From a phage, in sequence record NC_101837.1: a stretch of 64,000 nt of DNA; one strand, written 5' to 3'. Below, piece after piece: positions 11,605 to 50,588 of the stretch. Each line of letters starts with the position of its first letter. The first letter of the stretch is position 1. Made by a program: the position numbers and the translations under genes. Below the pieces are notes generated by a model. It saw only the letters and a program-made list of their open reading frames with translations, did not search any database and was not told the origin of the DNA.

Positions 11605-11883
11605 ATGAGCTGCGAAAAATCTTTTTTCATCATCATTTACGGTAAGGATAACTGCCCACATTGTGTCAGAGCAAAAGAATTTGCAATCAGCAAAGGTCTG
11701 CCTTTTGTATATAAGACACTTGGCGAGGGCTACACAAAAGAAGAGCTTATTGAGAAGTGTAGTCCAATCGTCCCCAGAACGTTGCCGCAGATCTTCTTAG
11801 AAAGCGATCTTGACAGTGTCCATATAGGCGGTGCAGACGATTTCATCTCTTTTGTTAAGAATGGTTTTGGAGAGAAAAAGTGA
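11605..11883 (+). CDS. glutaredoxin / NrdH-like redoxin
   Basis: CPHC active-site motif (YGKDNCPHCVRAKEF), 92 aa, between nrdB and nrdD. Confidence 0.7.
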   Translation: MSCEKSFFIIIYGKDNCPHCVRAKEFAISKGLPFVYKTLGEGYTKEELIEKCSPIVPRTLPQIFLESDLDSVHIGGADDFISFVKNGFGEKK

Positions 11884-12743
11884 AAGTTGTAAAACGGGAC
11901 GGTAGAGAAGAGTTTTATAACGGAATTAAGGTGATCAAGGCGGCAGAGTCCGCCTTACTTGAGTCTGGACATACTGAAGAAGAAGCTTACCGGATAGCTT
12001 GTGCAGTTAATGAAGTTGTTGCTAACAATCTACCAACCGACCAGTGCACGATCTCTGTAAAAAATATCCATATCCTTGTTGAAGATGCTCTTATGGATAT
12101 GGGTTTAAAATGTGCAGCCAGAGAATACATCCAGTATAGACAGACAAGAGATAATAACAGAGAGGCAGGTGGAAAACTGCTTGCAGATATTAGTGGCTTC
12201 TTGGATCGAACTTGTGATGAATTTACAAAAGAAAACGCAAATAAGCCTACTAATCATGTACACACTCATCGCGACCTGCTTGCAGGCATCCTTAGCAAAC
12301 ACCTTGCATCAACACAGATCCTGCCAGACCGTGTTTCAGAAGAGCACAATAAAGGCTTCATCCATGTGCATGATCTTGACTACTTGATCAGTCCGTTAAC
12401 AAACTGTTGTTTGGTAAATTATCCAGATATGTTGGAAAACGGATTCAACATTGGCAACGCCCATGTCAGTAAGCCGAAGTCAATAGGGGTTGCAACAACA
12501 ATCCTTAGTCAAATCTCTAGCGCGGTAGCTAGTGCTCAATATGGTGGTCAGACTATGAGCCATATTGATCATTATCTGGCACAGTATGCTGAAGCAACCT
12601 ATGAGAAGAACCTTAAATTTTGCCAGGAACATTGGTTGCCGGATGCTGAAACTGTTGCAATGCAAATGACAGATAAAGACGTGTTTGACAGCATGCAGAC
12701 GTTGCTTTATCAGATCAACACACTAACCTCGGTAAACGGTTAA
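11880..12743 (+). CDS. nrdD: anaerobic ribonucleotide reductase NrdD, exon 1 (3' boundary approximate)
   Basis: N-terminal ATP-cone (MKVVKRDGREEFYNGIKVIK); ORF terminates where structured non-coding RNA begins. Confidence 0.7.
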   Translation: MKVVKRDGREEFYNGIKVIKAAESALLESGHTEEEAYRIACAVNEVVANNLPTDQCTISVKNIHILVEDALMDMGLKCAAREYIQYRQTRDNNREAGGKLLADISGFLDRTCDEFTKENANKPTNHVHTHRDLLAGILSKHLASTQILPDRVSEEHNKGFIHVHDLDYLISPLTNCCLVNYPDMLENGFNIGNAHVSKPKSIGVATTILSQISSAVASAQYGGQTMSHIDHYLAQYAEATYEKNLKFCQEHWLPDAETVAMQMTDKDVFDSMQTLLYQINTLTSVNG

Positions 12744-13027: not shown

Positions 13028-14260
13028 TTGGACACTTCGGTCTTTGGTAGAATGATTACCAAAAATTACTTGAAAGTCCACAAAATGGGTCTTGGTGAAG
13101 AACGTATCACACCTGTGTTCCCTAAAGTGCTGTTCTTCCTGGAAGAGGGTGTCAACATGAACCCTGGGGATCCTAACTATGATTTGAAACGATTAGCTCT
13201 GGAATGCTGTGCAGAACGTATCTATCCTGACTTCGTATCTGTACCACTAAATAGAAAAGTGACAGGCTCGACAGATGGCAAAGTAACTAGCATGGGTTGC
13301 AGGAGTTTTCTTAGCAAATACAATGACTTGGAAACAGGCGAGGAGAAATACCTTGGCAGATTTAACTTAGGCGTTGTTAGCCTTAACCTGCCAATGATTG
13401 CGGCAAAAGCTAAGACGGAAGGTGTTGATTTCTTTGCAGTTCTTGACGAATACTTGGATCTTGCATATGAGGCTCACCTTGTAAGGGTTAACCGTCTAAA
13501 AGGAACAAAGGCAGGGCAGAACCCCATCATGTGGTGTGAAGGCGCTCTTGCTCGCCTGGATCCTGAAGAGAGTATTGATAAACTCTTCTATGACGGGTAC
13601 GCTTCCATCAGTATTGGGTATATTGGTGTGTATGAAACCTGTCAGATTTTGGGCAGAGAGGGTGACAAGGCTTTAGCTCTTGGAATCCTTCAGCACATGA
13701 GAGATGCTTGTGAGCGATACAAGAAGGAAAGTAGACTAGCATTTAGCTTGTACGGCACTCCTTCTGAGAGTCTATGCTATAAAGCTGCAACCTGTCTGGA
13801 TCGTGAATATCCGGAAGTGTTGAAGCACGAGCATGAATATCTCACCAACAGTTTCCATCAGCCAGTGTGGATAAATAGCTCTCCTTTTGATAAGTGGGAG
13901 TATGAGGAAGGTTTTGCTATGATCTCCTCTGGTGGCAACATTGGATACGTAGAGACACCTAACCTGAAAAACAACCTGGATGCTTTAGAGGCTCTTGTTG
14001 ACTTCGGGTATAAACATATTATGTATTTTGGTATTAACCAACCTGTGGATAAATGTCTCAAGTGTGGTTTCTCTGGTGAGTTCAGTGCAACAGCTAAAGG
14101 GTTCTGCTGCCCTGCGTGCGGATGCCACGATGAACAATATATCTCAGTGATCCGAAGAGTGTCTGGATATCTTTCCAGTCCTAACTCCCGTCCTTACAAT
14201 AAAGGTAAGCAAGCGGAAGTTATCGAGCGAGTTAAGCACTACGGAAGTTGTGGTTGCTGA
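13028..14260 (+). CDS. nrdD: anaerobic ribonucleotide reductase NrdD, exon 2 (5' boundary approximate)
   Basis: C-terminal Zn site CLKCG...CCPACGC and glycine-radical motif RRVSGYL; frame open upstream of the first ATG back to ~12986. Confidence 0.8.
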   Translation: MDTSVFGRMITKNYLKVHKMGLGEERITPVFPKVLFFLEEGVNMNPGDPNYDLKRLALECCAERIYPDFVSVPLNRKVTGSTDGKVTSMGCRSFLSKYNDLETGEEKYLGRFNLGVVSLNLPMIAAKAKTEGVDFFAVLDEYLDLAYEAHLVRVNRLKGTKAGQNPIMWCEGALARLDPEESIDKLFYDGYASISIGYIGVYETCQILGREGDKALALGILQHMRDACERYKKESRLAFSLYGTPSESLCYKAATCLDREYPEVLKHEHEYLTNSFHQPVWINSSPFDKWEYEEGFAMISSGGNIGYVETPNLKNNLDALEALVDFGYKHIMYFGINQPVDKCLKCGFSGEFSATAKGFCCPACGCHDEQYISVIRRVSGYLSSPNSRPYNKGKQAEVIERVKHYGSCGC

Positions 14261-14297: not shown

Positions 14298-15290
14298 ATG
14301 TTTAGGGAAGTTAGGAAACAAGAAATGGCTAAATTATCAACAGAAGAGTTTATAGAGAAGGCGAAAATCATTCACGGTTATAAATACGATTACACGAAAA
14401 CAGTGTACGTGGATTGCTATGCGAAGGTTTGCATTACCTGCCAAATCCATGGGGATTTTATGCAAGCACCTTGTAAACACTTGCAAGGTCGTGGTTGTCC
14501 TTTTTGTGCAAAACTTTCTCGTGCTGCAAAGTGTAATAAAGGTCTTAAATTTGTAGAAAGGGCCAAAGAAATCCATGGAGATAAATATGACTACTCTCTC
14601 GTATACTACAAGACTTGCAAAGACAGGGTAGAAATAATCTGCAACACTTGTGGAAATCACTTTACACAGACACCTGATAACCATATAAATTTGAAAAGAG
14701 GTTGTCCAGTTTGCAAGGGGTCAAGAATCTCACAAAGTAAAACATCACCACACGAAAAGTGGGTTGAGTCCATAAGAAGTAGAAATCCTTATGTTGAGAT
14801 ATTGGAAGAAATTATTGGGTGGGATAAGAAAGTCCTGTGCTGCTGTAAAGGTTGTAGCCACACATGGTTAACCGTACCAAGCAGTCTTAAGCAGGGACAT
14901 GCTTGCCCTAGATGCGCTAAAACAGGATTTTTATCACACGATAACGGAAAACTCTACATTATGGTTGATGATCCAGAAGTACCTACATTTATGAAAATAG
15001 GGGTCAGTCATAATGAAAGTAAGCGAAGAGACCAGATACTTAAAAGTGCACAAAGATCTAGAGCTGGTATCCGCGATCTTCACATAGTGAAAACGTTGGA
15101 AGGATCAACTGAAAACATGCTGGCTGTAGAAAAATCTATGCACAAAGCCTTCAGTAAATATAAAATAAACTTCCCTGTAAAATTTGATGGTAGTACCGAA
15201 TTCTTTAACTACAGACCTGAAGTGTTCAGTATGGTAGAATCAGCGCACAGAGAGATTTGTTGTAAACATAGGACAGGTAATAACCTGTAG
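14298..15290 (+). CDS. free-standing homing-endonuclease-like protein (T5orf172 / GIY-YIG superfamily C-terminal domain, repeated Cys/His N-terminal modules)
   Basis: Repeated HG(Y/D)KYDY...GCP(F/V)C modules; C-terminal LYIMVDDPE...KIGVS...STEFFNY resembles T5orf172 domain. Confidence 0.45.
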   Translation: MFREVRKQEMAKLSTEEFIEKAKIIHGYKYDYTKTVYVDCYAKVCITCQIHGDFMQAPCKHLQGRGCPFCAKLSRAAKCNKGLKFVERAKEIHGDKYDYSLVYYKTCKDRVEIICNTCGNHFTQTPDNHINLKRGCPVCKGSRISQSKTSPHEKWVESIRSRNPYVEILEEIIGWDKKVLCCCKGCSHTWLTVPSSLKQGHACPRCAKTGFLSHDNGKLYIMVDDPEVPTFMKIGVSHNESKRRDQILKSAQRSRAGIRDLHIVKTLEGSTENMLAVEKSMHKAFSKYKINFPVKFDGSTEFFNYRPEVFSMVESAHREICCKHRTGNNL

Positions 15291-43303: not shown

Positions 43304-43384
43304 AAATTTATCCTCTTTACTGGTTAGTGCGGTGTTGTTCACCTTGTAGGGTAATAATACCATGATTAACCTTGTTGTCAACGA

Positions 43385-43525
43385 TTATTTTAAATTATTT
43401 TTATGATAGAATCCACCTGCCGCCCCCGCCAGGTTAACCACCATTTTTTCGTACTCTTCTTTATGTTCCCGCGCTTCTGTATCATTAATCACTACATTTC
43501 CCAGGTGAGTAGCATTACCTTTCAT
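43385..43525 (-). CDS. 46-aa micro-protein (not in ORF track)
   Basis: ATG after GAGGAGG RBS; MKGNATHLGNVVINDTEAREHKEEYEKMVVNLAGAAAGGFYHKNNLK. Confidence 0.4.
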   Translation of the reverse strand: MKGNATHLGNVVINDTEAREHKEEYEKMVVNLAGAAGGFYHKNNLK

Positions 43526-43722
43526 TTTTGTACCTCCTCTTCAATTGTTTACCCTACAGTATGGGCCTACCAGGTTTGCAAGATTTCACCCTCTCCCACC
43601 TGGTCAGTTAGGTCCTGCCAGGCTGGCCCCGCCAGGTTGCAGCGGTTAGCGCATCAGGTTAGAAAAATTTTTTGAAAAGTGTTGACAGCGGCCCCGACAG
43701 GTGGCACAATATACCTATCGAA

Positions 43723-44039: not shown

Positions 44040-44510
44040 TAGAAATTTTAAAAATCCATTTCTGAAAACGAAAAATCGATTTCGTCCCCAAAAATTTCAG
44101 GTTGAGAGCCGGAACGATTTCCAGAAAATCCGATTCAGAAAACGAAAAACAGGTCGAGTACTGAGAAATTTATCGAGAAAAATTTTCAGAAAATCCAAGC
44201 CCTGAAATGAAAAGTAGATCGAGTACCTGGAAAGCTGCACCGCAACTTCAAGATAGCGGTTAGATTGTTACCATAGAAGGTCAAGGGTAAGTGGAGGAAG
44301 TTCTAGTAGAGGGAGGTTAGCATGTGTGGGAAATCTATAATGGTGGCCTGGAATATGGTGCAAACGATAGGATGAGTTATTCAGCTTGTCGCGCCTACTC
44401 TGAAAAATCCATTTTAGTTTTCGATCCATTTTCTGATTTTCTAAGAATTTTAAAATATCCAGCCCGGTGAAATATCAAAAGGAGGAAATCCATTTTAGAA
44501 ATCCCCCTTA
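44040..44510. repeat. degenerate direct-repeat array (core GAAAATCC(A/G)(A/T)TT, at least 5 copies) in a 1.1 kb non-coding region
   Basis: aaaatccatttctgaaaacgaaaaatcga / cagaaaatccgattcagaaaacgaaaaac / cagaaaatccaagccctgaaatgaaaag / gaaaaatccattttag / ggaaatccattttag. Confidence 0.6.
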
Positions 44511-44538
44511 TACTTGATATGCCAGGAATTTTCAAGTA

Positions 44539-44868
44539 TCAGTTGTCTTTGTTTTTAGGTTTGTACATGCGCAGAGGTATGGTCTTTGTAACATTCCATT
44601 TCCTCAACCCTTCCCAGCTCCAGTTGTGGGCGTGGTATCCGGTTATGCATGCACTACTGGAGTGATCGTAAGCATAAGAGAACGCTAAGCGCACCAGGTG
44701 GGGCCAGTCCTTCCATGGTTGTGGACCGTAAGCTTTTCTCCAACACCGACACAAACTAAATGTCTCAAGAATAGGAAGGATAACAAATCCATACACCGCC
44801 ACCAGAATAGCCAGCGCAATGATTGTCAGGAATACATACCCTGCAGTTGAAATGATGATCTCTGTCAT
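44539..44868 (-). CDS. membrane protein
   Basis: N-terminal TM IISTAGYVFLTIIALAILVAVYGFVILPI. Confidence 0.45.
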   Translation of the reverse strand: MTEIIISTAGYVFLTIIALAILVAVYGFVILPILETFSLCRCWRKAYGPQPWKDWPHLVRLAFSYAYDHSSSACITGYHAHNWSWEGLRKWNVTKTIPLRMYKPKNKDN

Positions 44869-45062
44869 TTGTCCTCCCCTTTCTTACGAATATAGATGTG
44901 AGAGCCTGCCTGTATATAAATTTCTCGACCATCTTCTGCAAAGATATGAAATACACGATCACCTTCGTACTCGATACGAGATATTTTCATAATGGTCTTT
45001 CCACCTGGGATACGGATCTCGTCCCCCACAGCGATGTTCCATGCAGATTTAAGCTTAAACAT
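44865..45062 (-). CDS. hypothetical small protein
   Basis: Start at internal Met with AAGGAAGG RBS. Confidence 0.45.
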   Translation of the reverse strand: MFKLKSAWNIAVGDEIRIPGGKTIMKISRIEYEGDRVFHIFAEDGREIYIQAGSHIYIRKKGEDK

Positions 45063-45300
45063 CTGCACCTTCCTTTGGGAGCTCGAACTCTGGCATAGCC
45101 ATATACGCCACAACAGGGTTGTAATCAAAGTAGAAATGACCGTTAATTATCCCAGTTTTGTGAGCATAGTCACCAGATCCTGCAAGAACAACCTCGCAAA
45201 CTCCGAAATCAACCTTGCCATTCTCATCTGCCATGGCTACAATATACTTTCCTAGAGGCATGTTTTTAACGCCGTCTACAAATGTCCACCCTTTGTTCAT
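45055..45300 (-). CDS. hypothetical protein
   Basis: 81 aa. Confidence 0.5.
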   Translation of the reverse strand: MNKGWTFVDGVKNMPLGKYIVAMADENGKVDFGVCEVVLAGSGDYAHKTGIINGHFYFDYNPVVAYMAMPEFELPKEGADV

Positions 45301-45321
45301 AACTTTATCTCCTGGACTTTC

Positions 45322-45654
45322 TTAAGGTAACCAGTAAACAATTTCGCCTTTCAGTTCCATGTCGTTACCGACATAGATTTTCCAGCCATCCATTTTAGCC
45401 ACTGCAGGAGTGAAGTCCGAAGAACCACTAACCTCTTTCCAAGTCCCGTAGTCAGGTTGCCAGATATAGAATCCACCTTCCTTGTCCCATGCTCCATATA
45501 CCACATCGAGCAGGTTGCCCATTGCAACAATAGTAGGCCGTGGGAATAATACATCTACAGATGCACCACAATTTCGGGTAGATTTTAAATTACAATCCCA
45601 AAAGATGTCTGCCAGTGTGGCGGCAATAGCTTTACGTCTTTCCAATGTTACCAT
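45322..45654 (-). CDS. hypothetical protein
   Basis: 110 aa. Confidence 0.5.
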   Translation of the reverse strand: MVTLERRKAIAATLADIFWDCNLKSTRNCGASVDVLFPRPTIVAMGNLLDVVYGAWDKEGGFYIWQPDYGTWKEVSGSSDFTPAVAKMDGWKIYVGNDMELKGEIVYWLP

Positions 45655-45664
45655 GGCACGATAC

Positions 45665-45856
45665 TCACTTGTTGTTAAGAAGTTCTAAAACTTTCTGTTT
45701 TACTTTGTCAAGGTCTGTGGATTCAAAAACTGTACGATATCCCCAACTTTGCCCATAGGAGTGACTGCAATCCCCGTAGCACCATTGCTCAATTTGATAG
45801 TATTCAAGGAACGGGTGCTGTCTAACTATGATACCATCCCGGTTAAAAATTACCAT
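45665..45856 (-). CDS. hypothetical small protein
   Basis: 63 aa. Confidence 0.45.
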   Translation of the reverse strand: MVIFNRDGIIVRQHPFLEYYQIEQWCYGDCSHSYGQSWGYRTVFESTDLDKVKQKVLELLNNK

Positions 45857-45919
45857 AATACATCACCCTCTGTTAGTTTATGCGTATATTATACACTGCA
45901 GTTTTCAGATGTCAACCTC

Positions 45920-46114
45920 TTACAGATTGCTCCAGTACAATCGGCATTTACATTTTGGGCAATGAGGTTCTTTTATGTAGTAACCGTCAGTCTTTGGAAC
46001 ACTTTTTGGTGCAGTTTTAAGATTGTACCTGGTAAAACATCGGAAGCAGGTTACCTCTCCCACCTGTTGATCGTTGATCCACTCACCGGAGTAAAGTTCT
46101 TTCTTGTTTCTCAT
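45920..46114 (-). CDS. small zinc-ribbon protein
   Basis: CFRC...CPKCKC; start at internal Met. Confidence 0.4.
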   Translation of the reverse strand: MRNKKELYSGEWINDQQVGEVTCFRCFTRYNLKTAPKSVPKTDGYYIKEPHCPKCKCRLYWSNL

Positions 46115-46365
46115 AATTCTCTCCCAAATCCTCTGCAATCTTATACCAAAATCTCCAGCCAGAAAGCACACGGGAACACTTTGAGGATTGAATCTTTACT
46201 TGGCTAGGAAGTTCTTTTTCCGTATGGTAGGTAGAAATACCCTCCTGCAGATTCGAATATAGCTCCTTCGGTTGTATCTACCACAGCAAGAATTAAGATT
46301 TTAGTCTCCACAGTGCTCTCCTCTCTTAGTTGTCGTGGAAACTATATCACCTCAGAAGATGGTCG

Positions 46366-46905
46366 TCAACACTTTTTGTACTCCACCACGACAATATCTA
46401 TGTCGAAAGTGGCAAGGTTAATAACGTCCTCTACGTGTTCCCACTTCAAACCGCCTATGCCGCACCCGATCTTAGGGATGTAGAATGGTAAAGTCGATCC
46501 GCTGAATACTTCATTGACTAGCTCAAAGCCTTTCAGGATTGAGAAATACTCAGCATTAGGTCCTGGGTAGAACTGGGTATATAGATTGATTCCGTAGACA
46601 ATACCTATCGGAGATAAGTGCTCCCATCGGGAGAACGCACCCAGTTTACTTAGGCAACCGTATCTAGTCTCTTTGTCGGCTGACAGTGCTTGAGGAAACT
46701 CACGGGCAATCTGTTTTGCTATACCCTTGCCCATTGTGTGGAAGCAGTTACAACCGTGGATCAGGTGACCAGCACCGCTCTTAAAAAGGGAGATTAAATC
46801 TCCCTCTACAGTATCAATAATCACGGTAAGCCAGCTCCTCTTCCGCAATTTCAAAAAACTCAGTCCAGCACTGTGGCATATTGGAGTTACCGAAGTGGCT
46901 TTCAT
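46366..46905 (-). CDS. macrodomain protein, TARG1/OARD1-like (putative ADP-ribose hydrolase); start uncertain, overlaps upstream ORF
   Basis: GDLISLF...HLIHGCNCFHTMGKGIAKQIAREFP and C-terminal IPKIGCGIGGL resemble the TARG1/OARD1-type macrodomain pattern (GDLF..HC.S.D..MGAGIA..FK..FP) as recalled. Confidence 0.55.
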   Translation of the reverse strand: MKATSVTPICHSAGLSFLKLRKRSWLTVIIDTVEGDLISLFKSGAGHLIHGCNCFHTMGKGIAKQIAREFPQALSADKETRYGCLSKLGAFSRWEHLSPIGIVYGINLYTQFYPGPNAEYFSILKGFELVNEVFSGSTLPFYIPKIGCGIGGLKWEHVEDVINLATFDIDIVVVEYKKC

Positions 46906-47239
46906 AGTAAAGGTTCTTACCGCTAGGAAGGTAGAAATCTGTTACCTCATAAAATCCACAATCGTCGCACTCACCTTCTTCAAACTTGGCCTTAACCTTA
47001 ATACCGAGGAAGGTGAAAAGTTTATGGACATCTTCAGTTTCGAACTCCCAGGGAATGTTGTTTTCCGCATCGGTGTAGAACTGGATCAGCAGACCATTGT
47101 CCAGTTTACCAAAATACTCTGTGAAGTAACTTCCTTCCCAGAAATCTTTATGACAAATAATATCCATGCGTTTGCCCATAATAATGGTGTGAGCGTTTTG
47201 GGCATCGTCACGAATCAGTTTTGGCATTTCATAGATCAT
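46814..47239 (-). CDS. hypothetical acidic protein
   Basis: 141 aa. Confidence 0.5.
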   Translation of the reverse strand: MIYEMPKLIRDDAQNAHTIIMGKRMDIICHKDFWEGSYFTEYFGKLDNGLLIQFYTDAENNIPWEFETEDVHKLFTFLGIKVKAKFEEGECDDCGFYEVTDFYLPSGKNLYYESHFGNSNMPQCWTEFFEIAEEELAYRDY

Positions 47240-47307
47240 CTTAGTTCTCCTGGTTCAACAGGTGGTGGCGCTACAGGAAGATCATAAAACATAGCTATCA
47301 CAGTCTC

Positions 47308-47505
47308 TTACACAGGAATTGCTTCAAACAGGCCGTTATCTATACCGTCCTTCAGATAGAGATTATATTCTATGTCGGTATCTGTATAAAGGGCAGCATC
47401 CAGCATTCTATCTGTGAGTCCATCCATTGGGTGGAGAAACCACCACCCACGCCAGTCAAAGTAACAGCCTGGTGCATCTTCTCTTACACGGATTCGATAA
47501 ATCAT
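47308..47505 (-). CDS. hypothetical small protein
   Basis: 65 aa, AGGAGG RBS. Confidence 0.45.
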   Translation of the reverse strand: MIYRIRVREDAPGCYFDWRGWWFLHPMDGLTDRMLDAALYTDTDIEYNLYLKDGIDNGLFEAIPV

Positions 47506-47601
47506 GGGCAGTGGCCTCCTGTTAGTTATACATCCCAGTTTTCTTCGTTCATCGCGTCCTCCCGTTATATGAAGTTATAATTGCACACCTTTCAACCTGT
47601 G

Positions 47602-48018
47602 TCAACAGAAAACTTCAACAAATTCTTCCACAGTTTTAATGTCGTGGGAAAAAGGTTTACGGCTATAACGGGCAATAGCACTATCAACCACCGCCCGGTA
47701 CTCTAAATCTTCAGAATATTTCATGAAGCATTGTAGCGTCTCTGGACAGATAGCTAAATAGCTCCACCACCCCTCTTCAGATTGGTAGTCAAATCCCATA
47801 CTCTCCAACCATGAAGCATATACGCCTGCACCCTCAAGCCAGTGAGTATTTTCATCCAGAAACTTGTTAATAGACATGTGAGCTTCTAAGCATTTATCCA
47901 GCTCTTTTCCGTTAACCAGCCACGCACTGACCGTGGCGCATCCAAGGTCTACAGATTGAGTTGACAGGTTGTATTGGTCATAGTTCTCAGGTTTAACAAT
48001 GATATCTTCTAATGTCAT
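47602..48018 (-). CDS. hypothetical protein
   Basis: 138 aa. Confidence 0.5.
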   Translation of the reverse strand: MTLEDIIVKPENYDQYNLSTQSVDLGCATVSAWLVNGKELDKCLEAHMSINKFLDENTHWLEGAGVYASWLESMGFDYQSEEGWWSYLAICPETLQCFMKYSEDLEYRAVVDSAIARYSRKPFSHDIKTVEEFVEVFC

Positions 48019-48039
48019 TTTTCAGATCTCCTTATACAA

Positions 48040-48068
48040 AAATGCCCCACCCTTTCGGGCAGGGCTAT
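48040..48068 (-). terminator. intrinsic terminator (minus strand), copy 1 of a duplicated terminator
   Basis: Minus strand CTGCCC-gaaa-GGGTGG (GAAA tetraloop, G-U wobbles) followed by GGCATTTTT; near-identical at 58761-58788. Confidence 0.55.
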
Positions 48069-48080
48069 GTTAGTTATGTG

Positions 48081-48659
48081 TTAAAAGTATTCGTATAAGT
48101 ATCCATCTGGAGCTGGAATTTTTTCATGAATGTAGTAACCAATATATATTCCGGTTTCTCTGCTACAAGAGTTGTGAGATACCCATTCTTTAAGAACGTT
48201 ACCATTCATGTCCAACCTCCTTACATTTTTGCACCGTCTACCGCTGGTGCTTCTATGTAACAGAATATCCTCTGTCTGCTTGTCTTTATTTTCTCCCCAA
48301 GTCGTTAAACGGATATTATCAAAAGAGTACCCTTTGAAATCATCTATCCTGTCACAAGAAGGCTTTTTCCTTTTGTCGTATCCGCTGGCTACCCACTGAT
48401 CATACAACTCTTTGTAACCGTTAAGGTATAGCCACTCCTTAAACTCTTTTTTGGTGTAAGTCGGAGGAGGGTGACCTCTTTGCTTGCTGTTGCACTTTTG
48501 AGCCTTGTACAACACACGTATTACACCTTTTTCTGAAGAGTCTTTAGCAAATTGGTCAGCCTCCCTGCTGGCCTTCTTGCAACACTCTTTGCACGTTGAT
48601 TTGTTACTGGTGTAGAAGTCGGAGGCCTCCTTGTCCTCTCCACAACGTTTGCATTTCAT
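48081..48659 (-). CDS. HNH-like (HNH_3/AP2-type) homing-endonuclease-like protein with N-terminal zinc ribbon; catalytic His apparently replaced by Arg
   Basis: MKCKRCG...CKEC; SCDRIDDFKGYSFDNIRLTTWGEN vs HNH_3 pattern DH.D...NN..NL.L.T..EN. Confidence 0.4.
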   Translation of the reverse strand: MKCKRCGEDKEASDFYTSNKSTCKECCKKASREADQFAKDSSEKGVIRVLYKAQKCNSKQRGHPPPTYTKKEFKEWLYLNGYKELYDQWVASGYDKRKKPSCDRIDDFKGYSFDNIRLTTWGENKDKQTEDILLHRSTSGRRCKNVRRLDMNGNVLKEWVSHNSCSRETGIYIGYYIHEKIPAPDGYLYEYF

Positions 48660-48667
48660 AACTGACC

Positions 48668-49894
48668 TCAGAAAGGGATCGAGTCATCGAACTCATACTG
48701 CGCCGGATTCTGATCCATCGGGTCATCTTCCTCGTCATTTACAGGAGGAGCGTCTACAGTGTTTTGCTGTGGAGCTGCTTCCTGTTTGGCAGCTTGAGGT
48801 TCTTGATGGTCAGTGGACCCAGCACCGTTCTTGATCCAATCGTACAACGGCTCAGCCAGATTAGTCAAGACATCTTTCGCTTCTGCAGTAATTGCCACTG
48901 CAAAATCATCAACTTTCGTTTTCTTGTCAATACGGCGACAAGCGTTCAACACCGCATTACCGACACTGGCACCTACTTCATCTTCAGTTCGGTTGGTGGC
49001 TTGAGCATACTCTTTCTTAAGCTCAATGGTGACTACGTGCAGTGTTTTAGCCACGCCCAGTGGGTCGTCTACCTTAAACCCGCGATCCAGGATGATCTGC
49101 AACGCATTGATGCTATGCCCCGTTTCCACACCGATAGGGTCGTAAGAGGATTTACGCTTGCCACCGGAGCCTTGAGTGCCGTTCTCTGCCTTAGGGGGAT
49201 AGGCTTTGAAACCACTGATAATGTTTCCGGTGTCTTTGTCAACAATGGCTGCAACACGACCACCTACCACCAGGTCTTTAAGCTGCTCATCAGTTACAAC
49301 CATAGCACCTTCGCCAATCTTGTGGTCATTAACAGTAACCACGTTGCCAACAATCTGAGTCACATCGCCATAGATGCGTAAAACGTCCTGATTGGCATTC
49401 TGCTGAGGTTTCTGCTTCTGGCCTTGTGATTGTGCACCTTGTTGCTGTTTTTGCTGCTGAGTCGCTGCTGGAGCCTCTCCTGCACCCAGCTTGACCATCT
49501 TAGCCAGTGAGCCTTTGTAATAGGTCTTACCGTTATGCTCGTTTGCCTTCAAAGGGATATTTACGATCCATCCCGGCGTTACGGTTTCCCACTTGTCATC
49601 AATTTTAACAGAGACAGAGTCTTGATGACCAGGTTTAAGCAGCTTATCACCCATGCTGATCCAGACTTCTTCACCACCTTGAAGCAGGTTATCAGAGGAA
49701 TCCAGTTCAGAAATCAGTAAAGAGATGGTGTGGCTGGACTCAATTTTCTTACCTTGCCACACAGTGGTTTTAATACCTGTTGTAGGATCAGCACCTTTGA
49801 TAGGCTTGATGCTGACGCGTTTAATCATGCCGTGAGCCAGTAAAACAGTTTCACGCGGATTCATCGGGTTAGCGAATTGTTGAATAACGCTCAT
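48668..49894 (-). CDS. putative ssDNA-binding protein with SSB-like acidic C-terminal tip
   Basis: 408 aa; Gln-rich linker (QQQKQQQGAQSQGQKQKPQQ); C-terminus EEDDPMD...EFDDSIPF resembles bacterial SSB DDDIPF tip; N-terminal fold not recognised. Confidence 0.4.
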   Translation of the reverse strand: MSVIQQFANPMNPRETVLLAHGMIKRVSIKPIKGADPTTGIKTTVWQGKKIESSHTISLLISELDSSDNLLQGGEEVWISMGDKLLKPGHQDSVSVKIDDKWETVTPGWIVNIPLKANEHNGKTYYKGSLAKMVKLGAGEAPAATQQQKQQQGAQSQGQKQKPQQNANQDVLRIYGDVTQIVGNVVTVNDHKIGEGAMVVTDEQLKDLVVGGRVAAIVDKDTGNIISGFKAYPPKAENGTQGSGGKRKSSYDPIGVETGHSINALQIILDRGFKVDDPLGVAKTLHVVTIELKKEYAQATNRTEDEVGASVGNAVLNACRRIDKKTKVDDFAVAITAEAKDVLTNLAEPLYDWIKNGAGSTDHQEPQAAKQEAAPQQNTVDAPPVNDEEDDPMDQNPAQYEFDDSIPF

Positions 49895-50259
49895 TATTTG
49901 TCTCCTTGTTCTTCGTTAGTGTTTGCCGTGTGTGCAAACCCTGCTTGAATTAATTTGTCCTGAACTTGAGCCAACAGGCCCATTGCAAAACTTGTGGTCC
50001 CAGAGAGGGCCATCAGCATATCTCGTTGTTGAGCTACCCAACCTAAGGCATAGTCCAAACGACGATATTTTTCTTCTTCACGCAGAGCCTGAAATAATTG
50101 TTCAGCCTCCGGTTGTTGTGTGAGCTCCTGAAGTCTTCCCATGAAAGAAGAAAGCACTAGCAAAAGAGACACTTGATCTTTACTTAACCCTAAGAAAAAT
50201 TCTTGAGGTTGTTCTTGCTCGTTCATCGCAACCGACGCTTGATCGTTCATTTGTTCCAT
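49894..50259 (-). CDS. hypothetical protein
   Basis: 121 aa, coupled to downstream gene. Confidence 0.5.
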   Translation of the reverse strand: MEQMNDQASVAMNEQEQPQEFFLGLSKDQVSLLLVLSSFMGRLQELTQQPEAEQLFQALREEEKYRRLDYALGWVAQQRDMLMALSGTTSFAMGLLAQVQDKLIQAGFAHTANTNEEQGDK

Positions 50260-50342
50260 TATGGAATCTCCGATTTTATTTGAACAACATAGAAGGAGAC
50301 ACTATTTTAGCATCCCCTTCTGCAAATTACAATAGGTATTTG

Positions 50343-50588
50343 TTAGCCAATCACTTCAAAAGTTCCCCAATTCCCGTCCAGCAGGCAGGTGATCGGATCC
50401 CCATCGTCGTCAAAGATTTCAAAGTTTTCAGCATCCAGGATGTGACCCTCGAACACGATACTTTCGTCGCCACCACCAGAAATAACAGCGTATTCCTTAC
50501 CTTGAGTCAAGTTTTGACACCCTTTGCCACCAAAACCTACTTCAACACAACGTACTTTCTGTCCTGCGCGAGCAACTGCTTCAGTCAT
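50343..50588 (-). CDS. hypothetical small acidic protein
   Basis: 81 aa. Confidence 0.45.
   Translation of the reverse strand: MTEAVARAGQKVRCVEVGFGGKGCQNLTQGKEYAVISGGGDESIVFEGHILDAENFEIFDDDGDPITCLLDGNWGTFEVIG

Follow-up and report, generated by a model that had tools for sequence, protein, structure and literature searches.

The window analyzed here, the whole 64-kb stretch of DNA, encodes a stand-alone macrodomain that is probably a glutamine-type eraser of DarT2 DNA ADP-ribosylation belonging to the T4 Tk.4/AdfM family. We place the probability of this reading at roughly two in three, based on homology, a predicted structure, and analogy to the enzyme SCO6735. The present analysis provides the fold and class of the protein, its active-site residues, and its relationship by homology to T4 Tk.4; the T4 knockout and the SCO6735 biochemistry come from the literature. 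The original prediction for this gene had suggested that it counters DarT-type immunity. Full-length homology to T4 Tk.4, which has a knockout phenotype, supports that idea, and the hypothesis is already the published function of the protein's family.

Fold and class of the protein

The protein matched the Pfam Macro family (PF01661) with 27.4 bits, above the gathering cutoff of 22, and PHROG 335 with an E value of 5.8e-59 for the 179-codon open reading frame (2e-59 is given for the 152-aa coding sequence). Based on these scores, the reading frame is therefore not a chance one. The AlphaFold2 model, built from a 55-sequence alignment, reached a mean pLDDT of 97 and a pTM of 0.91 and has the three-layer alpha/beta/alpha macro fold.

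A comparison with TARG1 and DarG by AlphaFold and Foldseek, proposed along with the original prediction, returned the macro fold with TARG1 first among the PDB structures (E=7.3e-10, TM 0.78/0.85). Next in rank were Poa1p, the DarG proteins of Thermus aquaticus and Mycobacterium tuberculosis, Thermosipho DarTG, BT1257, TTHA0132, and SCO6735, and the coronavirus and alphavirus macrodomains ranked below the ALC1-like proteins. The ALC1-like class is the name given to the TARG1/DarG clade in PMC9411070. When all PDB sequences were searched with a profile of the family, only members of this class matched (4e-18 to 1e-5), and the nearest relatives by profile and by structure are set apart from the MacroD, viral, and PARG types. 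The models for DarG matched over their macrodomain half only: PADLOC DarG at E=2.9e-13 (profile positions 4-142 of 329) and NCBIfam antitoxin_DarG (NF048014) at E=2.4e-12 (positions 3-141 of 338), the latter with 46.8 bits, below its 250-bit cutoff.

Because Foldseek, the PDB profile matches, and the DarG models all agree, profile matches and the predicted structure confirm that the 152-aa protein is a stand-alone macrodomain and belongs to the ALC1-like class (TARG1/DarG/Poa1p/SCO6735). Its earlier assignment to the TARG1/OARD1/DarG clade thus holds, as all of the best hits, whether by sequence, by profile, or by structure, are to TARG1, DarG, Poa1p, BT1257, and SCO6735.

Gene boundaries and start codon

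An uninterrupted 179-codon reading frame with an ATG start, read from the sequence, runs along the minus strand at 46366..46905. It contains the motif blocks GDL, HGCNC, MGKGIA, FP, and GCGIGG, as originally described, except that the block given then as HC.C reads HGCNC. The features that bear on the start of the gene are as follows:

46366..46824, minus strand: macrodomain coding sequence (very probable extent), 152 aa plus stop, with a GTG start; homologue of T4 Tk.4/AdfM
46825..46905, minus strand: 81-nt 5' extension of the mechanical 179-codon reading frame, equal to the 3' end of the upstream gene
46835..46839, minus strand: AGGAG, Shine-Dalgarno-like, 10 nt 5' of the GTG start, read from the sequence
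46814..47239, minus strand: upstream 141-aa gene, sharing 11 nt at its stop with the start of the macrodomain gene; PHROG 8157, no annotated function

The GTG at 46824 is where homology starts for every relative, T4 Tk.4 included; residue 1 of the 152-aa protein aligns with residue 1 of T4 Tk.4 and falls at the same PHROG 335 profile position. Clusters of this macrodomain family in the databases are 150-155 aa long, and both the RefSeq entry for slur16 and the GenBank entry for FV3 annotate a 152-aa, 459-nt coding sequence with an 11-nt overlap with the upstream gene. The AGGAG motif is also kept in slur16, FV3, and 241Ecol014PP. No homologue reaches into the extension at 46825..46905. Two changes separate the extension from slur16 and one from FV3, a small sample; all three are synonymous in the frame of the upstream gene and non-synonymous in that of the extension. 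The extended frame remains open in close relatives, where no stop codon argues for the shorter coding sequence.

The extension is probably not translated in the macrodomain frame, and the coding sequence is very probably the 152-aa one from GTG 46824. We dropped the 179-aa reading, the length first proposed, since the start of homology, the AGGAG ribosome-binding site, the slur16 and FV3 annotations, and the few substitutions favor GTG 46824. With this start, the overlap with the upstream gene, which the original prediction had noted, exists but does not have the 92-nt extent of the longer frame; it is therefore 11 nt, GTGATTATTGA. An overlap of 11 nt suggests translational coupling of the 141-aa gene and the macrodomain gene.

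Relationship to T4 Tk.4/AdfM

By BLASTP, the window protein is 39% identical to T4 Tk.4 (E=3e-41, residues 1-150 against 1-152), and PHROG 335 is the top-scoring family in either case. The two proteins share the blocks HGCNCFHTMG, NLYTQFxPGPN, and P+IGxGIG, of which the first two are identical, including the Gln. Both are stand-alone macrodomains of about 152-155 aa from E. coli phages. They differ in origin, Tequatrovirus for T4 and Vequintavirus here; only the T4 copy has a phenotype. Their neighborhoods differ as well: T4 tk.4 has vs and tk.3 as neighbors, whereas the vequintavirus gene adjoins the 141-aa gene instead. The family is large, with 1,434 clusters at 50% identity (E<=1e-30), and tblastn found relatives in 2,771 phage records; in T-even phages the match is gene tk.4.

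The function of the T4 member has been addressed genetically. T4 lacking adfA and adfN is still resistant to DarTG2 (PMC11825919), which implied a further anti-DarTG2 factor. In a preprint of November 2025, T4 was examined by transposon sequencing on a host with DarTG2, and tk.4 came out as the single hit; a clean tk.4 knockout made T4 sensitive to this system, and the authors gave the gene the new name adfM, for anti-DarT factor Macrodomain (bioRxiv 10.1101/2025.11.20.689424). T4 AdfM is proposed there to strip ADP-ribose from DNA enzymatically, and the T4 evidence is genetic. We found no published biochemistry for members of the Tk.4 family. The same HIDEN-SEQ study includes a library of the vequintavirus Bas54 (bioRxiv 10.1101/2025.11.20.689424), for which no DarTG2 result is reported. 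Our literature search on Vequintavirinae against DarTG2 found no such test and returned only the NADAR protein AdfN in Bas60-62, reported against DarTG1. Homology to T4 Tk.4 would extend the AdfM function to Vequintavirus, and we infer that the vequintavirus copy has the same activity and role.

A second phage protein also bears the name AdfM. PhiKZ gp104 is a phage-encoded orphan macrodomain, like the window protein, but it is DarG-like with a lysine (Lys78); it removes thymidine-linked ADP-ribose (T-ADPr) from oligonucleotides in vitro and shields chimalliviruses from DarTG2 (PMC13309987). The Tk.4 family has an invariant Gln. This difference in sequence suggests that PhiKZ AdfM and Tk.4/AdfM are two macrodomain lineages, or catalytic types, sharing one name.

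The protein is also distinct from DarG itself (M. tuberculosis 5M3I; T. aquaticus 5M31/5M3E). DarG has a catalytic Lys where the window protein has Gln84, and the C-terminal DarT-binding domain of DarG is missing from the 152-aa protein. DarG is encoded beside darT, whereas the genes neighboring the phage macrodomain have no DarT, Pfam, or PADLOC match.

Active site

To map the active site, the protein was aligned by MAFFT with T4 Tk.4, human TARG1, yeast Poa1p, M. tuberculosis DarG, BT1257, and SCO6735. For TARG1 and Poa1p, the sequences used were identical to the PDB chains; those of DarG, BT1257, and SCO6735 were taken from PDB alignments. Conservation was scored over 151 sequences, namely the best 150 family cluster representatives plus the window protein. 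Three segments contain the residues of interest:

46747..46758, minus strand: HGCN, codons His23-Gly-Cys-Asn26; Asn26 corresponds to DarG Asn22 and SCO6735 Asn27
46573..46587, minus strand: NLYTQ, codons Asn80-Leu-Tyr-Thr-Gln84; Gln84 at the position of TARG1 Lys84 and DarG Lys80
46450..46476, minus strand: diphosphate-binding loop, Pro117-Lys-Ile-Gly-Cys-Gly-Ile-Gly124-Gly125; Gly124 at the position of TARG1 Asp125

None of the 151 sequences departs from Asn26, Asn80, Tyr82, or Gln84, and 149 of them have His23. Pro117, Gly120, and Gly122 are likewise invariant in this set, and position 124 is Ala or Gly. The window protein thus carries the family signature of His23, Asn26, NxYTQ, and PxIGxG.

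The catalytic dyad of TARG1 is missing, with Lys84 replaced by Gln84 and Asp125 by Gly124. The catalytic pair of DarG is half kept: Asn22 is matched by Asn26, and Lys80 is replaced by Gln84. T4 Tk.4 has Gln at the same site. The original prediction had expected the TARG1 Lys/Asp positions and treated their absence as refuting it; Gln84 and Gly124 stand there instead. This absence does not refute the function, because SCO6735 and BT1257 also have Gln at the Lys position and SCO6735 is active on T-ADPr DNA. The Lys/Asp test was too strict.

In SCO6735, Gln85 is equivalent to the TARG1 and DarG lysines; the enzyme takes DarT-made, thymidine-linked ADP-ribose off DNA, the Q85A variant is inactive and N27S nearly so, and the proposed mechanism is water mediated, with the Gln positioning the distal ribose (PMC9411070). 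The role of the active-site Asn is taken from PMC9411070 and PMC13309987. The window protein has the SCO6735-type combination of Gln at the Lys position (Gln84) and a conserved Asn (Asn26), and the invariant Gln would, by analogy, tie the family mechanistically to SCO6735. The resemblance has its bounds. SCO6735 (5E3B) and BT1257 (2FG1/2AFC) are cellular proteins, about 22-23% identical to the window protein, and have NMIGQH where it has NLYTQF. After the Gln, SCO6735 and BT1257 have an insertion of 5-6 residues with DNA-contacting lysines, which neither T4 Tk.4 nor the window protein has; the extended mobile loop of SCO6735, with Lys89 and Lys94 after the Gln, is not in the window protein.

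The conserved His, the glycine loops, the fold, and the class are shared with human TARG1/OARD1 (4J5R) and yeast Poa1p (6LFQ). At the Gln84 and Gly124 positions, TARG1 has the Lys and Asp described above; Poa1p has Ser and Phe, plus a long insertion. Of the Poa1p active-site residues His23, Ser30, and Phe152, which are those mutated in 6LFS, 6LFT, and 6LFU, the first is kept, the second corresponds to Thr30, and the third to Gly124.

An alternative is that the protein is a housekeeping hydrolase of ADP-ribose-1''-phosphate or O-acetyl-ADP-ribose, which would serve a phage sirtuin and RNA-repair module and not counter-defense. We consider this improbable. Poa1p does have His23, Asn26, and a Ser/Thr at position 30 in common with the protein, in matching register; rV5-type phages are reported with sirtuin, tRNA ligase, and RNA-repair genes (PMC9503650); and PHROG 335, RefSeq, and several GenBank records label the gene "phosphatase" or "Poa1p-like." The label "phosphatase," however, appears to be carried over from the old A1pp domain name, Poa1p has Ser at the Gln84 position and Phe at the Gly124 position, and the sole known phenotype in the family is anti-DarTG2. 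Among the open reading frames scanned in the window there is also no sirtuin, ART, or NADAR gene; the Pfam search for such companions (ART, sirtuin, NADAR) covered the four reading frames around the macrodomain gene and 20 plus-strand reading frames of the left arm. We set the "phosphatase" annotation aside, as it appears to be a name transfer and not evidence.

Conserved residues also bear on whether the protein is an enzyme. The macrodomain of ALC1, a binder, has Gln at the same position, and the Q85A variant of SCO6735, although catalysis is lost, continues to inhibit DarT by interacting with it (PMC9411070). A protein that binds ADP-ribose without catalysis might inhibit DarT2 itself or soak up an immune signal derived from ADP-ribose. 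All 151 sequences nonetheless keep the Asn and Gln on which hydrolysis by SCO6735 depends, and these occur with His23 (149/151) and both glycine loops, a pattern typical of enzymes. To our knowledge, moreover, the known phage sponges have other folds. We regard a pure binder as very improbable.

Proposed mechanism

Read as an eraser of DarT2 marks, the protein would act as follows. In infected E. coli with DarTG2, the DarT2 toxin would ADP-ribosylate thymidines in single-stranded phage DNA and stop replication. The phage macrodomain would hold the ADP-ribose via its two glycine-rich loops, GKGIA and GCGIGG, and hydrolyze the ribose-thymine bond, freeing ADP-ribose and restoring the DNA. Catalysis would proceed without the lysine of TARG1 and DarG, with Gln84, held by Asn26, placing the distal ribose where water can attack it, a mechanism proposed for SCO6735.

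The substrates of macrodomains are not readable from sequence (PMC9503650), and the ALC1-like class is functionally mixed: Poa1p is an ADP-ribose-1''-phosphate phosphatase, TARG1 represents protein de-ADP-ribosylases, and the ALC1 macrodomain, which has Gln at this site, binds without catalysis. The protein might be a broader eraser, taking ADP-ribose off proteins or RNA and removing marks left by other host ART defenses or by phage ARTs. TARG1 heads the Foldseek list, SCO6735 works on both DNA and protein substrates (PMC9411070), and the breadth of the family (1,434 clusters, 2,771 phage records) would suit a general role. On the other side, the TARG1 Lys/Asp dyad for Glu/Asp-ADPr is missing, the scanned reading frames of the window include no ART gene, and DarTG2 sensitivity is the only phenotype reported for the T4 member. 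We give this broader role a small chance of being correct. All three alternatives, the housekeeping hydrolase, the binder, and the broader eraser, are less supported than the anti-DarT2 role, and they are not mutually exclusive.

DarTG systems block phages via DNA ADP-ribosylation, and carriage of an eraser helps to predict the host range of therapeutic phages, such as the rV5-like viruses.

Genomic context

A megablast search with 45000-49000 matched 119 phage records (90-99% identity). Almost all belong to rV5-like E. coli myophages (Vequintavirus, Vequintavirinae), DrSchubert, at 98.5% identity, being one example. The relatives label the gene variously as "macro domain-containing protein," "phosphatase," "Poa1p-like family protein," or "hypothetical protein." It lies within a long minus-strand run of small genes, downstream of rIIA/rIIB, a helicase, and DNA polymerase.

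Searches of Pfam, PADLOC, NCBIfam, and PDB sequences with the product of the upstream gene returned nothing, and it has only four homologue clusters, all restricted to vequintaviruses. AlphaFold2 predicted it with a pLDDT of 77, only a single model out of five being confident, and Foldseek gave no structural match with an E value under 0.1. The 141-aa protein has an invariant cysteine at position 29 and a CDDC motif at 91-94, of which C91 and C94 are invariant. We considered whether it could be a split-off C-terminal (DarT-binding) domain of DarG and rejected this on present evidence, as it has no recognized domain or fold match and only four clusters.

Upstream of these genes, a consensus scan identified a candidate promoter:

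47577..47605, minus strand: sigma-70-like promoter candidate, TTGACA-17-AATTAT with TG; consensus scan only

Reading from 47605 to 47577, this candidate could drive a 65-aa reading frame, the 141-aa reading frame, and the macrodomain gene. Promoter-like sites number 19 in 44500-50500, against 9.3 +/- 3.3 expected from shuffled sequence; the candidate above and a perfect consensus at 45915..45888 are among the 19. These consensus matches would fit early transcription by host RNA polymerase, and they are the sole sign here that the gene lies in an early region, as the original prediction had it.

Divergence of the macrodomain gene among relatives

Comparison with slur16 revealed a sharply bounded difference within the macrodomain gene:

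46384..46809, no strand assigned: nucleotide divergence island against slur16, with 101 mismatches in 426 nt, within the macrodomain coding sequence

The flanks of this island are 97-99% identical to slur16. Over the macrodomain coding sequence, the divergence from slur16/FV3 is about 24% at the nucleotide level and 18% at the residue level; the differences from slur16 comprise 59 synonymous and 42 non-synonymous changes, a ratio that indicates purifying selection on the sequence. The confinement of the island to the gene, together with this ratio, therefore suggests that the macrodomain allele was swapped for a diverged but functional one, rather than having decayed.

The T4-like Krischvirus ECD7 (L004 1501-1956) has a 69%-identical copy of the gene at the syntenic vs-tk.4-tk locus. 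This copy is only 44% identical to T4's own Tk.4, and it reads NLYTKF, with Lys where Gln is otherwise invariant. These features may reflect gene exchange between E. coli phages that are not related, as well as a natural Gln-to-Lys switch.

A further idea, which we regard as rather doubtful, is that the NxYTQ (Tk.4) family makes up a mechanistically separate lineage of phage enzymes that remove ADP-ribose from DNA without a lysine, and that phages recruited it separately from the Lys-type PhiKZ AdfM. If so, the vequintavirus allele replacement and the Gln-to-Lys change in ECD7 could mirror adaptation to DarT2 variants, or else adaptation to further ADP-ribosylating defenses, with substrates broader than thymidine-ADPr DNA.

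Two more short islands of divergence from slur16 lie in the same small-gene arm, at 43350-43650 and 44250-44700 (53-79% identity).

Other features of the window

No tRNA genes were found by ARAGORN in the whole window (1-64000). The genes of the window form two convergent arms, a plus-strand nucleotide-metabolism arm at 1-22 kb and a minus-strand arm at 30-64 kb. The 20 plus-strand left-arm reading frames scanned with Pfam are largely nucleotide-metabolism genes. Among the features of this arm is a split nrdD, the gene for anaerobic ribonucleotide reductase, encoded at 11880..12743 (Pfam NRDD positions 1-154) and 13028..14260 (positions 172-562), with about 285 nt between the two parts. No Rfam family matched at the gathering threshold when this split gene was checked for a group I intron. 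The reading frame that follows, 14298..15290, encodes a T5orf172/zinc-finger protein, possibly a homing endonuclease.

Two additional reading frames are likely mobile homing endonucleases: 1710-2315, which has a Pfam Endonuclease_7 match, and 48081-48659, which the annotation of relatives gives as endonuclease VII or a homing endonuclease. A terminator-like hairpin is located at 48065..48044 on the minus strand.

Further along the minus-strand arm, an 83-aa reading frame at 45920-46171 (minus strand) encodes a phage zinc-binding domain (PF23903, E=1.6e-22). A perfect sigma-70 consensus, TTGACA-16-TATAAT, is present at 45915..45888 on the minus strand, between this zinc-binding reading frame and the next small one.
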